DNA of 64,000 nucleotides from an uncultured SAR86 cluster bacterium (GCA_902563835.1 CACEZB010000001.1:42217-106216); one strand, 5' to 3'. Shown: positions 26,311 through 33,552, counted from the stretch's first letter. Translations and numbers: made by a program. Notes: generated by a model not told the origin, from the sequence alone.

Positions 26311-26391
26311 TCATCGATTAAGAAACCACCAATACATAACCATCATAAAGATGATGACAAACCATAACATAAAGTTGCTATTCTTTTTCAT
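26311..26391 (-). CDS. possible 26-aa hydrophobic peptide (MKKNSNFMLWFVIIFMMVMYWWFLNR)
   Basis: Hand translation; below the ORF-track size cutoff. Overlaps the end of the preceding small ORF by 14 nt. Confidence 0.25.
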   Translation of the reverse strand: MKKNSNFMLWFVIIFMMVMYWWFLNR

Positions 26392-26527
26392 TTCTTAAAA
26401 ACATTAATGAAGCTGTTGCTAGTATAACAAGCATCAAAATAGTAAATTGTTTTTCTTCAACTATTGCAACAACAAGAATTGCCGCTGCCCACATAATTGA
26501 TTGAAAGATCTTTTGTTTTTTATTCAT
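26378..26527 (-). CDS. possible 49-aa two-TM peptide (MNKKQKIFQSIMWAAAILVVAIVEEKQFTILMLVILATASLMFLRNEKE)
   Basis: Hand translation. The ATG lies 5 nt after the stop of the 135-aa gene. A decayed copy of its first codons follows the paralogous 117-aa gene. Confidence 0.3.
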   Translation of the reverse strand: MNKKQKIFQSIMWAAAILVVAIVEEKQFTILMLVILATASLMFLRNEKE

Positions 26528-26532
26528 GACTT

Positions 26533-26940
26533 TCATTTACCCAGACCAGGAGATCCACCCTGAAAAATCTTTACTTTGTCTATTACTTTTCCGGACCTAT
26601 CGAAAGTCTTACCCTTTTTATTTTTGTTAAGAGTTTTTATTCGATTTATTTGATCTTTGGTAAAACCTCTCCTTCCTCTTGATTCAAATTTTTTTATGTC
26701 TGATTCTTTCTTTAAAACACTCATATAATCACAATAATGTCGTATTTCTTTTAATTTCCAACCTTTGGGTTGAAGAATTTTTTTAATGTCCTCATAAAAA
26801 ATAAAAGGGAATATTATTTTTTTAAATTCTTGAAACTTTTTAATTGAAATTATTCTTTCTAAATTTTGTTTTTTTTCTTCTAATTTTCTTTTTACTTCTT
26901 TTTTTTGAATCGGGGAAAGGTTTTTATATTTTTTCTTCAT
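26533..26940 (-). CDS. basic hypothetical protein, paralogue A, with C-terminal QGGSPGLGK motif
   Basis: 135 aa, Lys/Arg-rich. Homologous along its length to the 27006-27359 ORF (..ERIISIK../..ESIISTK.., DIKKIL..GW..EI). Confidence 0.55.
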   Translation of the reverse strand: MKKKYKNLSPIQKKEVKRKLEEKKQNLERIISIKKFQEFKKIIFPFIFYEDIKKILQPKGWKLKEIRHYCDYMSVLKKESDIKKFESRGRRGFTKDQINRIKTLNKNKKGKTFDRSGKVIDKVKIFQGGSPGLGK

Positions 26941-26952
26941 TGATTAACTATT

Positions 26953-26994
26953 ATAACCAAATCTACTCCACCGTAGTGGAGTTGAATTGGTTGT
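26953..26994 (-). repeat. J1 intercistronic element: imperfect 42-bp palindrome with a 7-bp stem and UACG-loop hairpin core
   Basis: ATAACCAA-atct-ACTCCAC-cgta-GTGGAGT-tgaa-TTGGTTGT. Positions 26955-26975 are identical to 27390-27410. Positions 26963-26980 read STTVE* on the minus strand. Confidence 0.7.
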
Positions 26995-27005
26995 ACCTGT
27001 TTTCT

Positions 27006-27359
27006 TCATGACTTTCCTTTACCCAAACCTGGTGATCCACCTTGATACGGTTTTGTATAAGTTTTTGGTTGTCCGGTCTTGTTTTTGGAATATTTAAATG
27101 AAGGGGATACCCTTCGAGTATCCTGTCCCTTTCCTATACTTTTTGGTTTAGATAATTTCGATATTTGTTCCCTCGACCAACCCAACTCCATTAGTGAATC
27201 ATGAAGTATTTTTTTTATATTATCTCGACGATTGATTTTCTTATCCTGTAATTTAGTTGAAATTATTGATTCCAACTGAGTTATTAACTCCTCTAAATTC
27301 TTATTTTTGATATGACCATCTTTATTAAGATAATCTTTAAGATAACCCTTGATATCCAT
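27006..27359 (-). CDS. basic hypothetical protein, paralogue B, with C-terminal QGGSPGLGK(GKS) motif
   Basis: 117 aa. The C-terminal motif codons differ from paralogue A only at synonymous sites. Confidence 0.55.
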   Translation of the reverse strand: MDIKGYLKDYLNKDGHIKNKNLEELITQLESIISTKLQDKKINRRDNIKKILHDSLMELGWSREQISKLSKPKSIGKGQDTRRVSPSFKYSKNKTGQPKTYTKPYQGGSPGLGKGKS

Positions 27360-27387
27360 ACTTATTTTTTACACCTAAATAACTGGT

Positions 27388-27432
27388 ACAACCAAATCTA
27401 CTCCACCGTAACGGAGTGTCCATAACCAAATT
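27388..27432 (-). repeat. J2 intercistronic element: hairpin copy plus flanking AACCAAAT direct repeats
   Basis: The 21-bp stretch aaccaaatctactccaccgta is shared with J1. Hairpin at 27400-27417. Positions 27398-27415 read SVTVE* on the minus strand. Positions 27419-27432 repeat 26292-26305 (13/14). Confidence 0.7.
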
Positions 27433-27446
27433 GTCAACTTTCCCCA

Positions 27447-28304
27447 TTATTTCTTAATTTGTTTATTTACTAGTTTTATTTTGTCTACATTTAGACCCTT
27501 AACATTTACTAAATTACTAAAGATGCTAGCAAAAAGTCTAATCGAGTAGTTTTCAATCTCATCTAAGAGGAAACTATACTCCGGATGAAGTTCAAAGAAC
27601 AAAAAACTATCAAACTCTTCCATTGCGACTCTTGAAGAGTTTTCTTTTACCCTGTCTCCAAATTTATTTGCTTTTCCAATATAGAGTTGGTTTTCTTTCT
27701 TGTTATTTAAGATGTAAACCACATTTGTTCTCGATGAATACTTTTTTAGTTCAGATTTTTTTAACCATCTGTCTGAATAGGAAATAAAAATTTTATCTTT
27801 TTGTTTTTTCTTTTTACTGTCTTCCCAAAAAGCAAATAAATTTTTATCCTCAAGAAAATAAAACATCTCATCAAAGTCAGTCTCTTGCTTAGAAAGTACT
27901 TTTACTCTAAAAATATTTTCTTTTAAGTGAACAAATTCGAGAAGTTCTTTTATTTTTGGTTGTGCTTTATTTCTTGTGGAGGCATAACTGTAGATCATTA
28001 ATTTTCTTAATGCCTTTAAGGTATCGAGTTCGTTTTTCCAATATATTTGGAGCACATCCCTAACAGGGTATTTAACATTAGATCTTTTTTTTGATTTGCT
28101 TGAATTATCAATACTGACTAATCGTATTTTTGCATCAAAGGTTTTGTTTTTAATTTTTAGTTTTATCGATTTTATTCTTTCTTTTTTTGTGAGTTTAAAG
28201 TGCTTTATATACTCTGGATAAACTGCTTTTTGAAGAGTAAACCCGTAATAAAAAAATGTATATCTAGGTATTACATAACTGGAACTTAAAGCAGGTTTGA
28301 CCAT
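27447..28304 (-). CDS. GIY-YIG-domain nuclease with unassigned Lys-rich N-terminal region of about 190 aa
   Basis: The C-terminal segment VVYILNNKKENQLYIGKANKFGDRV...LLDEIENYSIRLF matches the GIY-x(9-11)-YIG-x(7)-R...E..N layout (compare UvrC GVY..LYVGKAKNLRKRV). This is about nt 27519-27725. Confidence 0.6.
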   Translation of the reverse strand: MVKPALSSSYVIPRYTFFYYGFTLQKAVYPEYIKHFKLTKKERIKSIKLKIKNKTFDAKIRLVSIDNSSKSKKRSNVKYPVRDVLQIYWKNELDTLKALRKLMIYSYASTRNKAQPKIKELLEFVHLKENIFRVKVLSKQETDFDEMFYFLEDKNLFAFWEDSKKKKQKDKIFISYSDRWLKKSELKKYSSRTNVVYILNNKKENQLYIGKANKFGDRVKENSSRVAMEEFDSFLFFELHPEYSFLLDEIENYSIRLFASIFSNLVNVKGLNVDKIKLVNKQIKK

Positions 28305-28323
28305 TTTTTATTCGACGGTTGCA

Positions 28324-28347
28324 GAATAAGTGCGAGTAGTGATTTCG
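28324..28347. repeat. left copy of a perfect 24-bp inverted repeat
   Basis: gaataagtgcgagtagtgatttcg is the exact reverse complement of 28941-28964. Imperfect extension to 28314 (acggt...). Confidence 0.9.
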
Positions 28348-28367
28348 TTTATCGTGTTCATTTCCAT

Positions 28368-28796
28368 TTAAAATTTGTTTCCTTTGATTGTTTCTTTTAT
28401 TAGATTCTGGGTTATGTTTATCCACTCCACTTCTTTAATTAGTTTACATTTACCTTTTAAAGATCCGTTCCCCAATCGTTCAAGATAAAGCGTCTCTCTG
28501 TTTAATGAATAATAAGAGTCATATAACTTATCTATGTGCTTTAGATGTATACCGCCTTCGCCTACAACCTTATATACTTTGCCTGAAATTTTATGAAACT
28601 TATATACGCCCACTTCAAAGGTATTGTTTTTTATTGGTTTTGTATTTACTACAAAATATTCTTGATAATCTGCTTCTAACTTATTTTCATTGCCTTCCTT
28701 TCTCCATTCATCATCTATGTCACATTCAATCCAAGTCGTTTCACCATGAGCATGGAAATTGATTATAAAAATTAAGCAAATTAAAAATTTTTTCAT
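28368..28796 (-). CDS. small secreted hypothetical protein
   Basis: 142 aa with an N-terminal signal peptide (MKKFLICLIFIINFHA). The whole gene lies between the 24-bp inverted repeats. Confidence 0.55.
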   Translation of the reverse strand: MKKFLICLIFIINFHAHGETTWIECDIDDEWRKEGNENKLEADYQEYFVVNTKPIKNNTFEVGVYKFHKISGKVYKVVGEGGIHLKHIDKLYDSYYSLNRETLYLERLGNGSLKGKCKLIKEVEWINITQNLIKETIKGNKF

Positions 28797-28940
28797 ATCT
28801 TATTCTTACATACTAATAAGTTAGTTTCATCCTTGAGATTTTTGTCTTGTAAGTTTTCTGTTCTTTTTGAGGATAAGCAACTAAATAATCACTTCTGCAA
28901 TTAAGAATAAAAGTTAAATATGTATCGTTGATGCGTGATG

Positions 28941-28964
28941 CGAAATCACTACTCGCACTTATTC
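28941..28964. repeat. right copy of a perfect 24-bp inverted repeat
   Basis: cgaaatcactactcgcacttattc. Overlaps the J3 remnant. Confidence 0.9.
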
Positions 28965-28978
28965 CACCGTAGCAGAGT
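28959..28978 (-). repeat. J3 element: third UACG-loop hairpin / GlmS-end-like remnant
   Basis: The minus strand reads tct gct acg gtg gaa taa (SATVE*). The hairpin is ACUCUGC-UACG-GUGGAAU with 6 of 7 pairs (2 wobble). Confidence 0.55.
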
Positions 28979-29098
28979 GTTCTTACCCCACCCATAATTC
29001 TTCACTATTTCTGCGGTATTTAAAAAGGTTAATGATTGGTTGCTTAAATTACTCATAATTATAGTGCTGTATATCCAAATTATGATATTGATTTAAAA

Positions 29099-29464
29099 TC
29101 AAGATAGTAACCAAAACGCCAAAAGACTAATATAGAAAATCTGTATTATCACAAGAAGACTGTCAATAAGACTATCAATCGAACCTGTAAATTTATTATT
29201 TATGCCAACAAGGTCTAAAACTTCTTGAAGCAATCTAAGAAAAAATAAAAAAAACAATGGTATTACTAATCCATTTGGTCCCGCATACGTAATAGTGTTG
29301 TATAGCAAAGGGGTATTATTTATCAGATCAGAGGATACTAGCGAGACATAAATCCAAGGGGCAGAAAACATGGCAAATAAAAGAATAAACCCGTAAGTAA
29401 TAATCGCACCTATGGCACTGGTAAGAAATCTAGAAAGAAATTTTCTAATCTGCTTAATATCCAT
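29099..29464 (-). CDS. hypothetical membrane protein
   Basis: 121 aa with about 3 TM segments. Confidence 0.5.
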   Translation of the reverse strand: MDIKQIRKFLSRFLTSAIGAIITYGFILLFAMFSAPWIYVSLVSSDLINNTPLLYNTITYAGPNGLVIPLFFLFFLRLLQEVLDLVGINNKFTGSIDSLIDSLLVIIQIFYISLLAFWLLS

Positions 29465-29544
29465 TTCTTAATAAGAGGTTCACGATTTTAGTTTGATTGT
29501 GTTATTGGTTAAGTAAAAAAGTAATTTGGTTTTGATATAAACCA

Positions 29545-30000
29545 TCAATAAATTAAAACACAATAATTTAACTCTGTTTCCGCTTCATCGTATTGTTCTT
29601 TGGTTATAGGCAACAAATTTTCAAAAGGAATTGGGTGTGGTTTTATTCTGGGTGGGTCTTGATAGTTTAATATTGCGTATTTTCCTGTGAATTGTATTCC
29701 GTTTTTTGTTTCAGCAATAAATTCTAGAGTTGGTGCAACACCAGGACCTTGTGCTTCCCATGGCAAACAATACTCATCTTCTCCTATCATTCGACAATAC
29801 AATGGCGGCATAACATCAACATCAACATGGTTATTTAAAAAGGTCATGCTAATCGCTGGTTGTATTGTCATCATGTAGTAAGTACGATTCATCTCAGCAA
29901 TCGAATAAGTTACAGAACATCTAATATCTTTTTCTCCTCCATCTTCGTGAGCAAATAGATTAATAGATAAGAGCAATGTAAATAGAACAACGTTTTTCAT
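29545..30000 (-). CDS. small secreted hypothetical protein
   Basis: 151 aa. The signal peptide ends ...NLFA and is followed by HEDGGEKD. Contains 4 Cys. Confidence 0.55.
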   Translation of the reverse strand: MKNVVLFTLLLSINLFAHEDGGEKDIRCSVTYSIAEMNRTYYMMTIQPAISMTFLNNHVDVDVMPPLYCRMIGEDEYCLPWEAQGPGVAPTLEFIAETKNGIQFTGKYAILNYQDPPRIKPHPIPFENLLPITKEQYDEAETELNYCVLIY

Positions 30001-30150
30001 AAAAATATTTTGCCATAACTCTTTATAAATGTCCTATAAGTACACATAAAGGTCCGCAACAAGTCTCAACATCCCCTTGTGACTTCCTCTAACACGAAAA
30101 AATAGGTGAAATTTTTAGGGTAGTTTTTACCAGGGTTAAATTTTAGTGGT

Positions 30151-30176
30151 TTTTAAAACCCCCGCAGAATGCGAGG
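30151..30176 (-). terminator. candidate rho-independent terminator, probably the displaced ancestral glmS terminator
   Basis: Minus-sense CCUCGCA-UUC-UGCGGGG (7 pairs, one G.U that pairs only in this sense), then GUUUUAAAA. It starts 23 nt after the stop codon of the glmS-end remnant. Confidence 0.5.
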
Positions 30177-30199
30177 TTAAAACTAATTGTTGTTTAAAT

Positions 30200-30221
30200 T
30201 TACTCCACTGTGACTGACTTG
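30200..30221 (-). repeat. displaced copy of the glmS 3' end (last 6 codons plus stop), acting as an att-like direct repeat
   Basis: ttactccactgtgactgacttg versus 31726-31747 ctactccacagtgactgacttg is 20/22 identical. Both differences are silent (Thr third position; TAA versus TAG). Confidence 0.85.
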
Positions 30222-30225
30222 AATG

Positions 30226-30240
30226 AAACAGAGAATTAGA
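30226..30240. repeat. inner inverted repeat, left copy (AAACAGAGAATTAGA)
   Basis: 14/15 match to the reverse complement of 31707-31721. Both copies sit exactly 4 nt inside the 22-bp direct repeats. Confidence 0.75.
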
Positions 30241-30280
30241 TTTATCCCTTATGTCTACTGACTTCTTCATTGCTTTTTTT

Positions 30281-30386
30281 TTGACCAAACCCTACCTGCT
30301 TTTGCAGTAACCTCGTTGACCAAACCGGTTTTATAGATATTTCTTCCATTTTATACATTATAACCGTTGTTATTGTTTGACCAATC
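30281..30386 (+). repeat. three direct copies of TTGACCAA(A/T)C (30281, 30316, 30377)
   Basis: ttgaccaaacc occurs twice and ttgaccaatc once, in the non-coding arm next to the left att-like repeat. These are candidate arm-type or regulator binding sites. Confidence 0.45.
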
Positions 30387-30414
30387 GTCCTATATAAGTT
30401 TGTTATAATTTTTA

Positions 30415-31656
30415 ATGGTTATGAAAAAAATAATAGTTCTCAATATTCTTGTCCTTCTTGCTGGTTGTGGTCCATCGCAGGAAGAGAGGGTGAATATTGC
30501 TCTAAATGCTTGCGCCGTTATGGGTGAATCGAAACAATCAGATTCATTGTTTCGCATGCAAACCATGGTTGATGCGCGAGAAAAGTTAGGTGGTGAAGGG
30601 TTTTCGGGAGGGGATGACGCAATCTTAGAGGCATTTGAATTTGGAATTTGTTCAGAGTTAGTATTGAACGAATCCTATGATGAACTTCTTCTATCTTTAA
30701 AAGATGCTAAGCGCGAAAGAGAGAGAATAGCGGCAGAGAAATTGGCAGAAGAAAAGAGAATAGAGGCAGAAAAACTGGCAGAAGAAAAGAGAATAGAGGC
30801 AGAAAAACTGGCAGAAGAGAAGAGAATAGAGGCAGAGAGGCAAAGAATTGCCGATAGTAAACCTACAGTAAAAGAAGAGTTCTATGGCAACGGTAGATTA
30901 AAAAGCAGGACAAATTACCAACCCGTACTGAATGGAGGAAAAAAACATGGTCTTTTTGAGTTGTTCTACAAGAGCGGTCAATTACAGTTAAAGCAAAACT
31001 ACAGAGACGGAAAAGAAGACGGTGTTTATGAGGAGTACTACGAAAATGGTCGAGTAAGTGTACGGACTGTTTTTAAGAATGGAAAACGTGAAGGTCCTTA
31101 TGAGGAGTATCATGAAAATACTCAATTGTGGGTACAAACTGTTTTTAAGAATGGGAAAATTGAAGGTGATTATTTTCAATACGACAAGTACGGTATTGTA
31201 AAAGCACAGATTAGTTTTAAGAACGGAAAACGTGATGGTCCTTATATAGGTTACTGGGATAAAGGGGGGGTAAGAGAAATGGGTAATTACAAGGAAGGAA
31301 AACGTGATGGTCATTTTTGGTTTTATGGAGCAAAAGGCACTCGTTCATCTATGGTAGATTGGGAAGAAGATACTTTCTATAAGATTAACATTGAAGAAAA
31401 ACTAAAAGGTTATTTTAAAAACGGTTTCTTCTATCCATTAGAAAAAGAAGGTATTTACAAGAATGGATTGCGTCATGGTATTCATAAAACCTATGCGGAT
31501 TACTACACGGAGGGTGAAACTCTGTTGACTTGGAAAGGAGAATACAAAAACGGAAAGTTAGATGGTCTAACTTTTGGTTATGACGGCAAAAGAGAATATG
31601 TAAAGAATTGTTACAAAAACGGTGATGAAATAATTATGTCCTACTGCAAAAAGTAA
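30415..31656 (+). CDS. lipoprotein with MORN-variant (YwqK-like) repeats and a coiled-coil linker
   Basis: Lipobox LLAGC. More than 8 repeats of the Y.NGk..G....Y type. AEKLAEEKRIE occurs 3 times. The start may instead be the ATG at 30421. Confidence 0.7.
   Translation: MVMKKIIVLNILVLLAGCGPSQEERVNIALNACAVMGESKQSDSLFRMQTMVDAREKLGGEGFSGGDDAILEAFEFGICSELVLNESYDELLLSLKDAKRERERIAAEKLAEEKRIEAEKLAEEKRIEAEKLAEEKRIEAERQRIADSKPTVKEEFYGNGRLKSRTNYQPVLNGGKKHGLFELFYKSGQLQLKQNYRDGKEDGVYEEYYENGRVSVRTVFKNGKREGPYEEYHENTQLWVQTVFKNGKIEGDYFQYDKYGIVKAQISFKNGKRDGPYIGYWDKGGVREMGNYKEGKRDGHFWFYGAKGTRSSMVDWEEDTFYKINIEEKLKGYFKNGFFYPLEKEGIYKNGLRHGIHKTYADYYTEGETLLTWKGEYKNGKLDGLTFGYDGKREYVKNCYKNGDEIIMSYCKK
30733..30831 (+). 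repeat. 33-bp x 3 in-frame tandem repeat encoding AEKLAEEKRIE
   Basis: gcagaRaaaYtggcagaagaRaagagaatagag is repeated head to tail, with partial copies on both sides. Confidence 0.9.
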
Positions 31657-31683
31657 TCAATTGCTTTTTTGTAAAAAAGGGAG

Positions 31684-31725
31684 AAAAAAATGACAGAATC
31701 GTGATTTCTTATTCTCTGTTTTGTT
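31684..31725. terminator. candidate bidirectional terminator between the convergent MORN gene and glmS
   Basis: ACAGAAT...ATTCTCTGT stem (7 pairs plus a 2-nt bulge). It is flanked by A7 on one side and TTTGTT on the other, so there is a U-tract in both senses. Confidence 0.45.
31707..31721. repeat. inner inverted repeat, right copy (TCTTATTCTCTGTTT)
   Basis: Reverse complement AAACAGAGAATAAGA. Partner of 30226-30240. Confidence 0.75.
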
Positions 31726-33552
31726 CTACTCCACAGTGACTGACTTGGCAAGATTTCTTGGTTGATCAATATCGGTGCCCCTTAAAAGGGCAACCTCATA
31801 AGAAAGAATTTGAAGTGGAATGGTGTAAATAATTGGAGTTAAAAGAAAATCACATTTAGGCATATTAATAACCTGTCCTGATTTTAAATCCATTGTGATA
31901 GAAGGATCAGCAAAAACATACAGGGTGCCGCCCCTAGCCTTAACTTCTTCGAGGTTTGAAACAAGCTTTTCAGCTATTTCGCTCTCTGGAGCTAATGCAA
32001 TAACTGGCATTTCTTCATCAATTAATGCCAAAGGTCCATGTTTTAACTCGCCGGCCGGATAAGCCTCAGCATGAATATAAGAGATTTCTTTAAGCTTAAG
32101 AGCGCCTTCTTTTGCAATGGGATAGAAGATACCTCTTCCTAAAAATAAAGCATTATCTTTGCTTGCTATTGCAGGCGCTATCTCAAGAATTTTATCTTTT
32201 AATTTTAAGGTCTCATTTACAGTATCAGATAACGATCTCATTGCTGTAATAACACGAGTCCTTAATTTAGGGTTTTTACCCCTACTCTTTGCGAGCGCAA
32301 GAGAAAGCAGCATTAATGCAGCTAGTTGAGTGGTAAATGCTTTGGTTGAAGCAACGCCTATCTCAGGGCCGGCATTAGTAAAAATAGAATAATCAGATTC
32401 TCTTGCTAAAGAGCTAGTCGGCACATTGCAAATTGTTAGCGTTGATAAATAATCTTTTTCTTTTGCATATCTTAATGCAGCAAGTGTGTCTGCTGTTTCT
32501 CCTGACTGAGATATTGTTACCAATAGAGAATCTTCGTCAACATGTGGATTTCTATATCTATATTCTGAAGCATAATCAATCTGGGTTGGCAGCTCTGCGA
32601 TAGCAGAAAACCAGTTTGCAGCAACCCTTCCTGCATGCAAGCTCGTGCCGCAAGCAACAATTTGGATTCTTTTTACTTTTTCAAATATTTCAGATGACCC
32701 TATACCAAAGATATTATCTAATACATCATCGCCACCAACTCTGCCATCGATTGTATTTAGAATTGCATCAGGCTGTTCATATATTTCTTTTTCCATGAAA
32801 TGTTTATATTCGCCTTTAGAGGTTGCCTGATTAGAAATGTCAATTTGAGAAATCTCTCTTTCGACTTTATTTTTTGACTGATCATAGATTGTAAATTCTT
32901 CAGATGAGAGCTCAGCCACATCTCCATCTTCTAAAAAAATAAATTCATTTGTTAGCTGAGCTATAGCAAGAGGATCTGATGCAGCTAAAAACTCATCTGT
33001 TCCTATTCCAATTAGTAGTGGCGATTTGTTCCTAGCAATAATTATATTTTTGTCATCTTCTTTATCTATTGCTGCAATTGCATAAGCGCCATCAAGTTTT
33101 TCTTTAGTTAAATACATCGAGTCCAGCATTGAATTGCCCTTGGCTAAAAAATACTCAAGCATATGGGCTATTAATTCTGAGTCTGTTTGAGAAGAAAAGC
33201 TATAGCCCTCCTTTTTTAAAAATTCTTTTAAATCAAGATAGTTTTCAATAATTCCATTGTGAACAATGTAGACTCTTTCATTTGACTTATGAGGATGAGC
33301 GTTTTCCTCTGATGGTTCTCCATGAGTTGCCCATCTAGTATGAGCAATCCCCAGCTTACTTTTTGGCTTTTCGGAGATCATCTTTTCTTCTAGTAATTTA
33401 ACTTTTCCCAAAGTTCTTAAATGAGCTATTTGATTATTCTGATGTAGCGCGATCCCGGCAGAGTCATAACCTCGATACTCCATTTTATGAAGCCCTTGAA
33501 CAAGAAGCTTTCCTACATTTCTGTTAGAAGCAGCAGCTATGATTCCACACAT
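31726..33552 (-). CDS. glmS: glutamine--fructose-6-phosphate aminotransferase
   Basis: 608 aa. N-terminal MCGI (Cys2 nucleophile), two SIS domains, C-terminal ...LAKSVTVE. Confidence 0.97.
   Translation of the reverse strand: MCGIIAAASNRNVGKLLVQGLHKMEYRGYDSAGIALHQNNQIAHLRTLGKVKLLEEKMISEKPKSKLGIAHTRWATHGEPSEENAHPHKSNERVYIVHNGIIENYLDLKEFLKKEGYSFSSQTDSELIAHMLEYFLAKGNSMLDSMYLTKEKLDGAYAIAAIDKEDDKNIIIARNKSPLLIGIGTDEFLAASDPLAIAQLTNEFIFLEDGDVAELSSEEFTIYDQSKNKVEREISQIDISNQATSKGEYKHFMEKEIYEQPDAILNTIDGRVGGDDVLDNIFGIGSSEIFEKVKRIQIVACGTSLHAGRVAANWFSAIAELPTQIDYASEYRYRNPHVDEDSLLVTISQSGETADTLAALRYAKEKDYLSTLTICNVPTSSLARESDYSIFTNAGPEIGVASTKAFTTQLAALMLLSLALAKSRGKNPKLRTRVITAMRSLSDTVNETLKLKDKILEIAPAIASKDNALFLGRGIFYPIAKEGALKLKEISYIHAEAYPAGELKHGPLALIDEEMPVIALAPESEIAEKLVSNLEEVKARGGTLYVFADPSITMDLKSGQVINMPKCDFLLTPIIYTIPLQILSYEVALLRGTDIDQPRNLAKSVTVE

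Follow-up and report, generated by a model that had tools for sequence, protein, structure and literature searches.

A conserved C-terminal peptide on unrelated small proteins encoded in glmS-docked gene cassettes of a SAR86 cluster bacterium

Two adjacent cassette genes and their common tail

In the present study, two small neighboring genes were analyzed in a 64,000-nucleotide stretch of DNA from an uncultured SAR86 cluster bacterium (GCA_902563835.1, CACEZB010000001.1:42217-106216), which is referred to here as the window, with positions counted from its first letter. Both genes lie on the minus strand, and both products end in the same tail, QGGSPGLGK. The first, geneA (26533..26940), encodes 135 residues with the C-terminus ...FQGGSPGLGK*, and the second, geneB (27006..27359), encodes 117 residues with the C-terminus ...YQGGSPGLGKGKS*. 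The motif occupies positions 26536..26562 in geneA, where TGA follows directly, and positions 27018..27044 in geneB, where GKS and the stop follow. The nine codons read CAG GGT GGA TCT CCT GGT CTG GGT AAA in geneA and CAA GGT GGA TCA CCA GGT TTG GGT AAA in geneB, so that the two copies differ at four synonymous and no non-synonymous positions, as an earlier note on this DNA had recorded. By the Nei-Gojobori method, these codons contain 7.67 synonymous and 19.33 non-synonymous sites (pS 0.52, dS approximately 0.9), and the probability that four of four random differences would be synonymous is approximately 0.0065. A degenerate tail pattern matched twice in the window compared with no match in 100 shuffles, and these two matches were the only ones in the whole 991-kb genome.

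The resemblance between the two proteins is confined to their ends. BLASTP aligned geneA and geneB only over the last 22 residues (E 3e-5), and in hhalign, using the family alignments of the two proteins, only the last 23 columns were aligned (96.8 %, E 2.4e-10). The description of the genes as otherwise diverged paralogues therefore has to be abandoned, because no homology was detected between their N-terminal parts, and 16 unrelated N-terminal groups share the tail module, as described below. The proposal that geneA ends three residues early through a single GGA to TGA change was confirmed, and its closest homologues, P0014 and L019, read GKGKS at this position. L066, a metagenome contig of independent origin whose gene order differs, has the same early TGA, which is therefore considered a real allele. 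The last three residues of the tail, which are lost in geneA, are dispensable as far as these comparisons indicate.

Both genes are cargo of adjacent units in an array of mobile gene cassettes docked on the stop codon of glmS. The glmS gene (31726..33552, minus strand) encodes 608 residues ending in ...NLAKSVTVE and is preceded by glmU, and its last 18 nucleotides (31726-31743, minus strand) form the docking site that is repeated downstream. The repeated 18 nucleotides were identified as the GlmS C-terminus using a six-frame search for S-V-T-V-E-stop. Copies that mark cassette junctions were found, all on the minus strand, at 30200..30217, at 28959..28976 (a diverged copy), at 27398..27415 (S-V-T-V-E-stop, upstream of the geneB cassette) and at 26963..26980 (S-T-T-V-E-stop, between the geneB cassette and the geneA unit). 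With glmS itself, the window contains five copies of this 3' end in the same orientation (31726, 30200, 28959, 27398 and 26963), whereas 0.3 would be expected by chance; 12 glmS ends and 65 further copies were observed in the metagenome loci. At least four cassette units, bounded by such copies, follow glmU-glmS in the interval 26963-33552.

The arms that flank the junctions are inverted complements of each other across a cassette, e.g. ATTTGGTTGTACCAGTT at the start and AACAGGTACAACCAATTC at the end. At least four arm classes exist, and all of them show this reverse complementarity between start and end arm. In the window, the start arm of the geneB cassette (ATTTGGTTGTACCAGTT, 27381..27397, minus strand) is the inverted complement of its end arm (AGAAAACAGGTACAACCAATTCAAC, 26981-27005, minus strand), located 3' of geneB. 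Thus, geneB stands alone in a complete cassette of approximately 435 bp with a matched pair of type-a arms, and geneA begins the next unit, which opens with a diverged type-a arm (ATTTGGTTATAATAGTT, 26946..26962, minus strand). Approximately 20 tail genes are likewise the sole gene of a cassette of 375-435 bp, with the stop codon 25-31 nucleotides from the junction, and end arms of types a and d were found only in cassettes with a tail gene. At the junctions of loci L005-L098, the arms differ between cassette classes, and the 18-nucleotide core between them is constant. These features suggest that cassettes are recognized through the core and a palindromic structure rather than through the arm sequence.

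The geneA unit is without a terminal copy of the glmS end. An open reading frame (ORF) for a 52-residue membrane protein (26378..26536, minus strand) starts in overlap with the truncated end of geneA, and a relative of this ORF forms a separate cassette in genome G068. By comparison with that arrangement, a deletion at an ATGAA microhomology seems to have joined the end of the geneA unit to a cassette for a membrane protein. In the interval 26941-27010 of the window, and also in L061 and L075, the ATG of a TCATGA overlap opens a short, non-conserved ORF that crosses the arm and core and stops 3-15 nucleotides before the start codon of the next cassette. This ORF may provide translational coupling across junctions, as is the case for the short ORFs of integron attI and attC sites, and it may also have arisen by chance in AT-rich DNA. 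An alternative view of the repeats, i.e. a UACG hairpin or RNA element in the 5' untranslated region upstream of each gene, was rejected as the primary explanation, because the repeated element is actually the glmS 3' end, its apparent compensatory changes are synonymous variation of S-V-T-V-E-stop, and Rfam returned no match.

No published description of glmS-docked cassette arrays was found. The array resembles integron cassettes in being composed of promoter-poor, mostly single-gene units in one orientation, with junctions that are imperfect palindromes with variable arms and with defense genes among the cargo. However, several differences were also observed. First, no IntI lies beside the array, which is preceded by glmU-glmS, and the tyrosine recombinases are located elsewhere; only two were detected in the genome that carries the window (73 % complete), each of 299 residues, at C10 and C1:128848, and both are probably of the Xer type. 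The array itself encodes no recombinase, and no serine recombinase (Resolvase domain) was found in the same incomplete genome. Second, the cassettes dock at the 3' end of an essential gene, and every junction carries a copy of this end. Third, the conserved core lies between the inverted arms and not in an R box, and in the arms, as read by eye, GTTGTAC or GTTATAA was seen rather than the GTTRRRY of integrons.

The tail as a conserved peptide module

The conservation of the tail was examined using homology searches with the full-length proteins, which are independent of the tail. These searches returned 13 homologues for geneB and 17 for geneA, all unnamed and all from marine metagenomes. The tail, or a variant differing at one residue, was kept in 13 of the 13 geneB homologues and in 16 of the 17 geneA homologues (29 of 30 in total), and GGAPGLGK, GGSTGLGK and GLEK were the only variants. 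The mean pairwise identity was 0.95 in the tail compared with 0.55 elsewhere for the geneB homologues, and 0.87 compared with 0.56 for the geneA homologues. In addition, metagenome contigs were scanned with a degenerate-codon pattern; this gave 87 loci, and 71 genes ended in GGSPGLGK plus zero to three residues. All 71 genes lie in contigs with a GC content of 29-46 %, and the other matches of the scan are chance matches in GC-rich DNA. Conservation of the motif in a larger homologue set, which the earlier note had left to be seen, is thus borne out both by the full-length homologues and by approximately 70 more metagenome genes.

The reach of the tail outside these sets is narrow. A hidden Markov model (HMM) of the last 45 residues, compared with 1.84 billion representative proteins, matched only 25 clusters, all of 64-155 residues with the tail at the end of the ORF; two of these predictions continue past the TGA stop because the gene caller took TGA as tryptophan. 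Some public gene predictions, P0009, P0011, P0031 and P0047, read the TGA after the tail as tryptophan and run through the arm and core, and these run-ons are probably gene-calling artefacts of the TGA = Trp code and not real extensions. A pattern scan of 185,579 species genomes returned nine matches, none of which resembles the small ORFs that end in the tail, and all nine are chance matches in unrelated, mostly GC-rich genomes. Within the same order, the motif is carried by two of 266 species genomes, and tail genes are therefore considered rare accessory genes.

When the last approximately 30 residues were removed from 102 tail proteins, the remaining parts formed 16 groups without mutual BLASTP similarity. 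At the sequence level, these comparisons establish that the N-terminal parts of the tail superfamily belong to at least 16 mutually unrelated groups and that QGGSPGLGK is the invariant core of a C-terminal module of 35-45 residues. The extended consensus of this module reads N-P-K-P-[FVYL]-Q-G-G-S-P-G-L-G-K-[GKRN]-K-(S), and S-P-x-F-x-x-Y-K is observed approximately 20 residues upstream of the tail in many families. The proteins are small (64-216 residues, median 111), lysine-rich and basic (median isoelectric point 10.1), and at most three residues separate the motif from the C-terminus. Among Pfam, NCBIfam, PHROG and PADLOC, no family matched the tail proteins above the cut-off, and the motif string was not found in the literature searched. 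A phage origin was rejected, as neither family alignment (geneA or geneB) found a relative in IMG/VR and all PHROG matches were weaker than E 0.002. The tail superfamily is unnamed and undescribed; that unrelated proteins can share a docking peptide at the C-terminus is already known.

The constraint on the tail itself is exerted on the peptide. In 14 type-a cassettes with identical spacing, the third codon positions of the tail showed an entropy of 0.80 bits compared with 0.11 bits in the 25-nucleotide arm, and in 70 unique genes, all four bases were present at every 4-fold site of the tail. The synonymous sites are free and the peptide is kept; therefore, QGGSPGLGK is selected as a peptide, and the purifying selection proposed from the window pair holds in the wide protein set, where synonymous sites are scrambled and the amino acids are retained. 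Past the lysine codon of the tail, the constraint switches from the protein to the DNA level. The conserved stretch 3' of this codon in geneB (26981..27017, minus strand) consists of GGA AAG TCA TGA followed by the arm AGAAAACAGGTACAACCAATTCAAC. In the 14 type-a cassettes, GGA AAG TCA TGA is nearly invariant, third positions included, and it combines a Shine-Dalgarno-like AAGGA with an ATGA stop/start overlap, at which a gene lying downstream starts in several loci. Many loci have nearly the same DNA after the stop, reading AGAAAACAGGTACAACCAATTCAAC and then TCNGTNACNGTNGARTAR. The Shine-Dalgarno/ATGA overlap, the inverted repeat at the cassette end and the copy of the glmS end thus make up the region conserved as DNA. 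The nucleotide similarity that had been noted to continue beyond the motif is therefore real, and it is separate from the motif, because it belongs to the cassette 3' end, which is conserved at the DNA level.

An identity of the two tails without selection on the protein, arising by gene conversion or because the tail codons belong to the DNA site at which the cassettes recombine, might be suspected, since the tail adjoins the conserved cassette end and the last codons hardly vary even at third positions. This explanation is highly improbable and is already contradicted by the data. The synonymous sites of QGGSPGLGK are near saturation in the window pair, the third-position entropy of the tail far from matches that of the arm, and the peptide is kept by tail genes in contigs without any junction; moreover, by reading, the cassette start has no complementarity to the tail codons. 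Recent gene conversion at the 3' end, the alternative raised in the earlier note, is excluded by the same near saturation (dS approximately 0.9) together with the four bases at 4-fold sites. A further candidate, in which a programmed +1 frameshift at UCA-UGA-A would extend the tail into ...EENRYNQFNSVTVE, was also rejected. The +1 frame is open past the tail and the final stop varies among TAG, TAA and TGA, but codon periodicity is found only in the 18 nucleotides derived from glmS. The changes in the spacer are mostly non-synonymous (seven of nine), and a 1-nucleotide indel in L061 also speaks against such an extension.

Predicted structure and genomic neighbors

AlphaFold2 models were built with the family alignments. 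In the geneB model, a four-helix domain spans residues 1-72 with a predicted local distance difference test (pLDDT) score of 70-86, and residues 73-117 are predicted to be disordered (pLDDT <50); these basic, C-terminal 45 residues include the tail. In the geneA model, helices extend to residue 107, a small beta-hairpin occupies residues 111-122, and residues 123-135 are predicted to be disordered (pLDDT <50). The models agree, for both proteins, with the proposal that the tail lies at the end of a disordered basic region.

Foldseek returned no match for the N-terminal domain of geneB, the ESM Atlas gave no usable match, and a profile search of the PDB with the tail module gave no hits at E<=10. 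For geneB, a likeness to the ATP-cone of ribonucleotide reductases was considered, in which VIA matches took ranks 1, 3 and 4 (Z 7.0 with a root-mean-square deviation of 5.7 over 79 aligned residues, and Z 5.9 for the other two); it was rejected, as these matches fall below the noise level of helical bundles. Some N-terminal groups showed weak matches of the helix-turn-helix (HTH) type, i.e. MerR_1 (E 0.0038, 17.7 bits compared with a cut-off of 21.6), sigma70-ECF (E 4.4e-5) and GP3_package (E 6.4e-4). The tail also resembles the G-patch, a helicase activator of the form G-x-G-L-G-K. At E<=1, neither geneA nor geneB had the G-patch family PF01585 among its listed matches, and it was not among the families matched by at least two of 55 tail proteins at E<=0.1.

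Among 150 ORFs neighboring tail genes, MORN_2 (YwqK-like) repeat proteins were the most common (eight of 150). Such cargo lies next to the tail genes of L027, L036, L054, L066 and L096, and a MORN_2 lipoprotein gene (30415-31656, plus strand) occupies the first cassette of the window on the opposite strand. Other neighbors include restriction and modification enzymes, Mrr and NOV_C nucleases, a DarT-associated NADAR protein, and MotA/ExbB- and OmpA-family genes in tandem, which resemble a Zorya defense pair; ATP-synthase and glmU genes are also present in related loci. In a lineage of 42-43 % GC (L034:3698-8352 and L087:2314-4837), the tail gene follows an HsdR/EcoEI_R_C gene, and in L034 it also lies beside a Zorya-looking pair of MotA/ExbB-like and OmpA-like genes. 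In L026:9-1535, an ORF of 509 residues with restriction-type MrcB_N and NOV_C domains runs into the cassette junction and ends in the S-V-T-V-E-stop that the glmS copy supplies. A 285-residue ORF in the window (27447-28304), with a weak GIY-YIG match, carries the same end arm as L026; the possibility that it is a relic of the L026 protein was rejected, as no similarity was found. In four contigs, L032 (1778-2977), L033, L037 and L093, a tail protein of 64-66 residues abuts or overlaps the stop of a 332-residue tyrosine integrase, in an island beside tRNA-Gly(GCC), and a small protein with a twin-arginine translocation (Tat) signal follows the pair on the other strand in the L032-type island. 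The arrangement of the two reading frames predicts that tail protein and integrase are translationally coupled in this lineage.

Possible functions of the tail

Herein, we propose that the tail is probably a short linear motif, i.e. a handle for docking or binding that is common to different cassette-borne modules and through which they would all contact a single conserved partner, be it a hub protein or a ligand carrying phosphate, e.g. nucleic acid. This proposal draws on sequence comparison and structural models, and it is favored because the tail is predicted to be disordered, lies at the C-terminus and is carried by many N-terminal domains, some of them weakly HTH-like. Shared C-terminal docking peptides are known from the cargo-loading peptides of encapsulins, the C-terminal tip of the single-stranded DNA-binding protein (SSB) and the C-terminal tail of lambda Xis, which binds Int. 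Similar to these three, the tail is a short, invariant, predicted disordered C-terminal peptide that follows a flexible linker on unrelated N-terminal domains, whereas its sequence is unlike any of them. A role as an encapsulin cargo tag was rejected, as no shell gene (PF04454) was found in the same genome (73 % complete), in which the controls were positive. As candidate partners, we rank the recombination machinery, with an excisionase-like role, before phosphate or nucleic acid bound through a Walker-A-like loop, and these before another host hub.

Several points weigh against a common docking handle. The metagenome set was ascertained using a pattern that fixes the amino acids, and the unbiased test of conservation is therefore provided by the homology-based sets only. 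The tail occurs in only two of the 266 genomes of the order, so that the partner must be a universal host component or come from elsewhere, and no partner of the tail was found in this analysis. In addition, all matches of the N-terminal domains fall below the curated cut-offs, and the link with an integrase is a single lineage.

A more specific role, in which the small protein would attach through its tail to the cassette-moving recombinase (the host XerCD, a tyrosine integrase or, acting in trans, a large serine recombinase), is rather unlikely on the present evidence. The protein would then act as an excisionase, i.e. a recombination directionality factor, or as an Xer-activating factor, and a one-gene cassette would be self-mobilizable. 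Such a role would be consistent with the short distance of 25-31 nucleotides between tail-gene stop and junction in the approximately 20 single-gene cassettes, with the restriction of type-a and type-d end arms to tail-gene cassettes, and with the integrase that the 64-66-residue tail protein abuts or overlaps in the tRNA-Gly island. Moreover, their size, charge and disorder make the proteins similar to Xis: they are small and basic with weak MerR/HTH signals and a predicted disordered C-terminus, and lambda Xis contacts Int through such a C-terminus. However, tail genes are absent from 264 of the 266 genomes of the order, the N-terminal group shows no co-variation with the arm type, and tail genes also occur beside restriction and Zorya-like genes in contigs without a detected glmS-end junction. 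The host genome, as far as it is complete, offers only the two probably Xer-type recombinases and no serine recombinase, and the integrase association is limited to one lineage. The full form of this idea, in which the tail is the docking peptide for the cassette-moving enzyme and the cassette of approximately 400 bp, consisting of a variable domain and the tail, is the minimal self-mobilizing unit, is put forward as a doubtful possibility. A binding role of another kind is suggested by the likeness of G-S-P-G-L-G-K to the P-loop of nucleoside monophosphate kinases and AAA+ ATPases, through which the tail might bind a phosphate ligand (nucleotide, polyphosphate or nucleic-acid backbone) or interfere with a P-loop enzyme. 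Five fixed residues match those of Walker A (G-x-P-G-x-G-K-[ST]) and a hydrophobic residue precedes them, position -2 being hydrophobic in 42 of 44 non-redundant tails. In the same genome, G-x-P-G-x-G-K occurs seven times in ORFs of at least 80 residues, i.e. in the two tails and in five Walker-A-like loops, which are preceded by a hydrophobic strand and which, by their sequence context, likely belong to adenylate kinase, FtsH, Lon, a MoxR-like ATPase and a kinase. One family, P0050, also matches the N-terminal part and P-loop of 2-phosphoglycerate kinase weakly (E 3.6e-4), far below the cut-off. Nevertheless, the residue after the lysine is G, K, R or N and is serine or threonine in none of the 44 tails, the motif ends zero to three residues before the stop, so that neither the following helix nor a nucleoside triphosphatase fold is present, and the tail is predicted to be disordered (pLDDT <50). 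The kinase match is limited to one of 55 proteins, the PDB profile search found nothing, and phosphate binding through such a loop is considered quite unlikely.

Two further explanations receive much less weight. The tail genes might encode toxins or effectors with a shared warhead or delivery tag, followed by immunity genes of the MORN_2/YwqK-like or small membrane protein kind. The MORN_2 genes are the commonest neighbors, their start overlaps the tail-gene stop in L036, L054, L096, L092 and L066, and in the window, L059, L070 and L058, a small membrane ORF comes after the tail gene. However, most tail genes have no other gene in their cassette, a deletion between microhomologies of the ATGAAGAAAA type can bring two genes side by side, and no signal peptide, secretion system, or PADLOC, Pfam or NCBIfam match was found for these proteins, and this explanation is accordingly very improbable. 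The presence of Gly-Gly in the tail had also raised the idea of processing or conjugation after this pair, as in a double-glycine leader, a ubiquitin-like tag or the core of a ribosomally synthesized and post-translationally modified peptide (RiPP). This idea is extremely improbable and was not upheld, as SPGLGK after the pair is as invariant as the pair itself and Gly-Gly lies 6-9 residues from the C-terminus. In addition, C39 peptidase, E1-like and JAB-type families are absent from the top 25 families listed for the 150 neighboring ORFs, and no C39 peptidase or E1/JAB enzyme was found in 39 neighbors scanned one by one.

The tail proteins make up one of the main kinds of cargo in a cassette system through which streamlined ocean bacteria turn over the genes downstream of glmS. 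They also illustrate that, where a cassette ends, constraint can pass from the protein to the DNA in the space of a single codon. If the tail does dock onto the cassette-moving enzyme, a cassette of approximately 400 bp would bring its own excision or activation factor and borrow the host Xer or a serine or tyrosine recombinase acting in trans. An invariant handle of nine residues on 16 unrelated scaffolds provides a ready-made bait (peptide ...NPKPYQGGSPGLGKGKS), and the partner of the tail could reveal how cassettes move without a recombinase of their own, or a new hub targeted by mobile elements in abundant marine bacteria.

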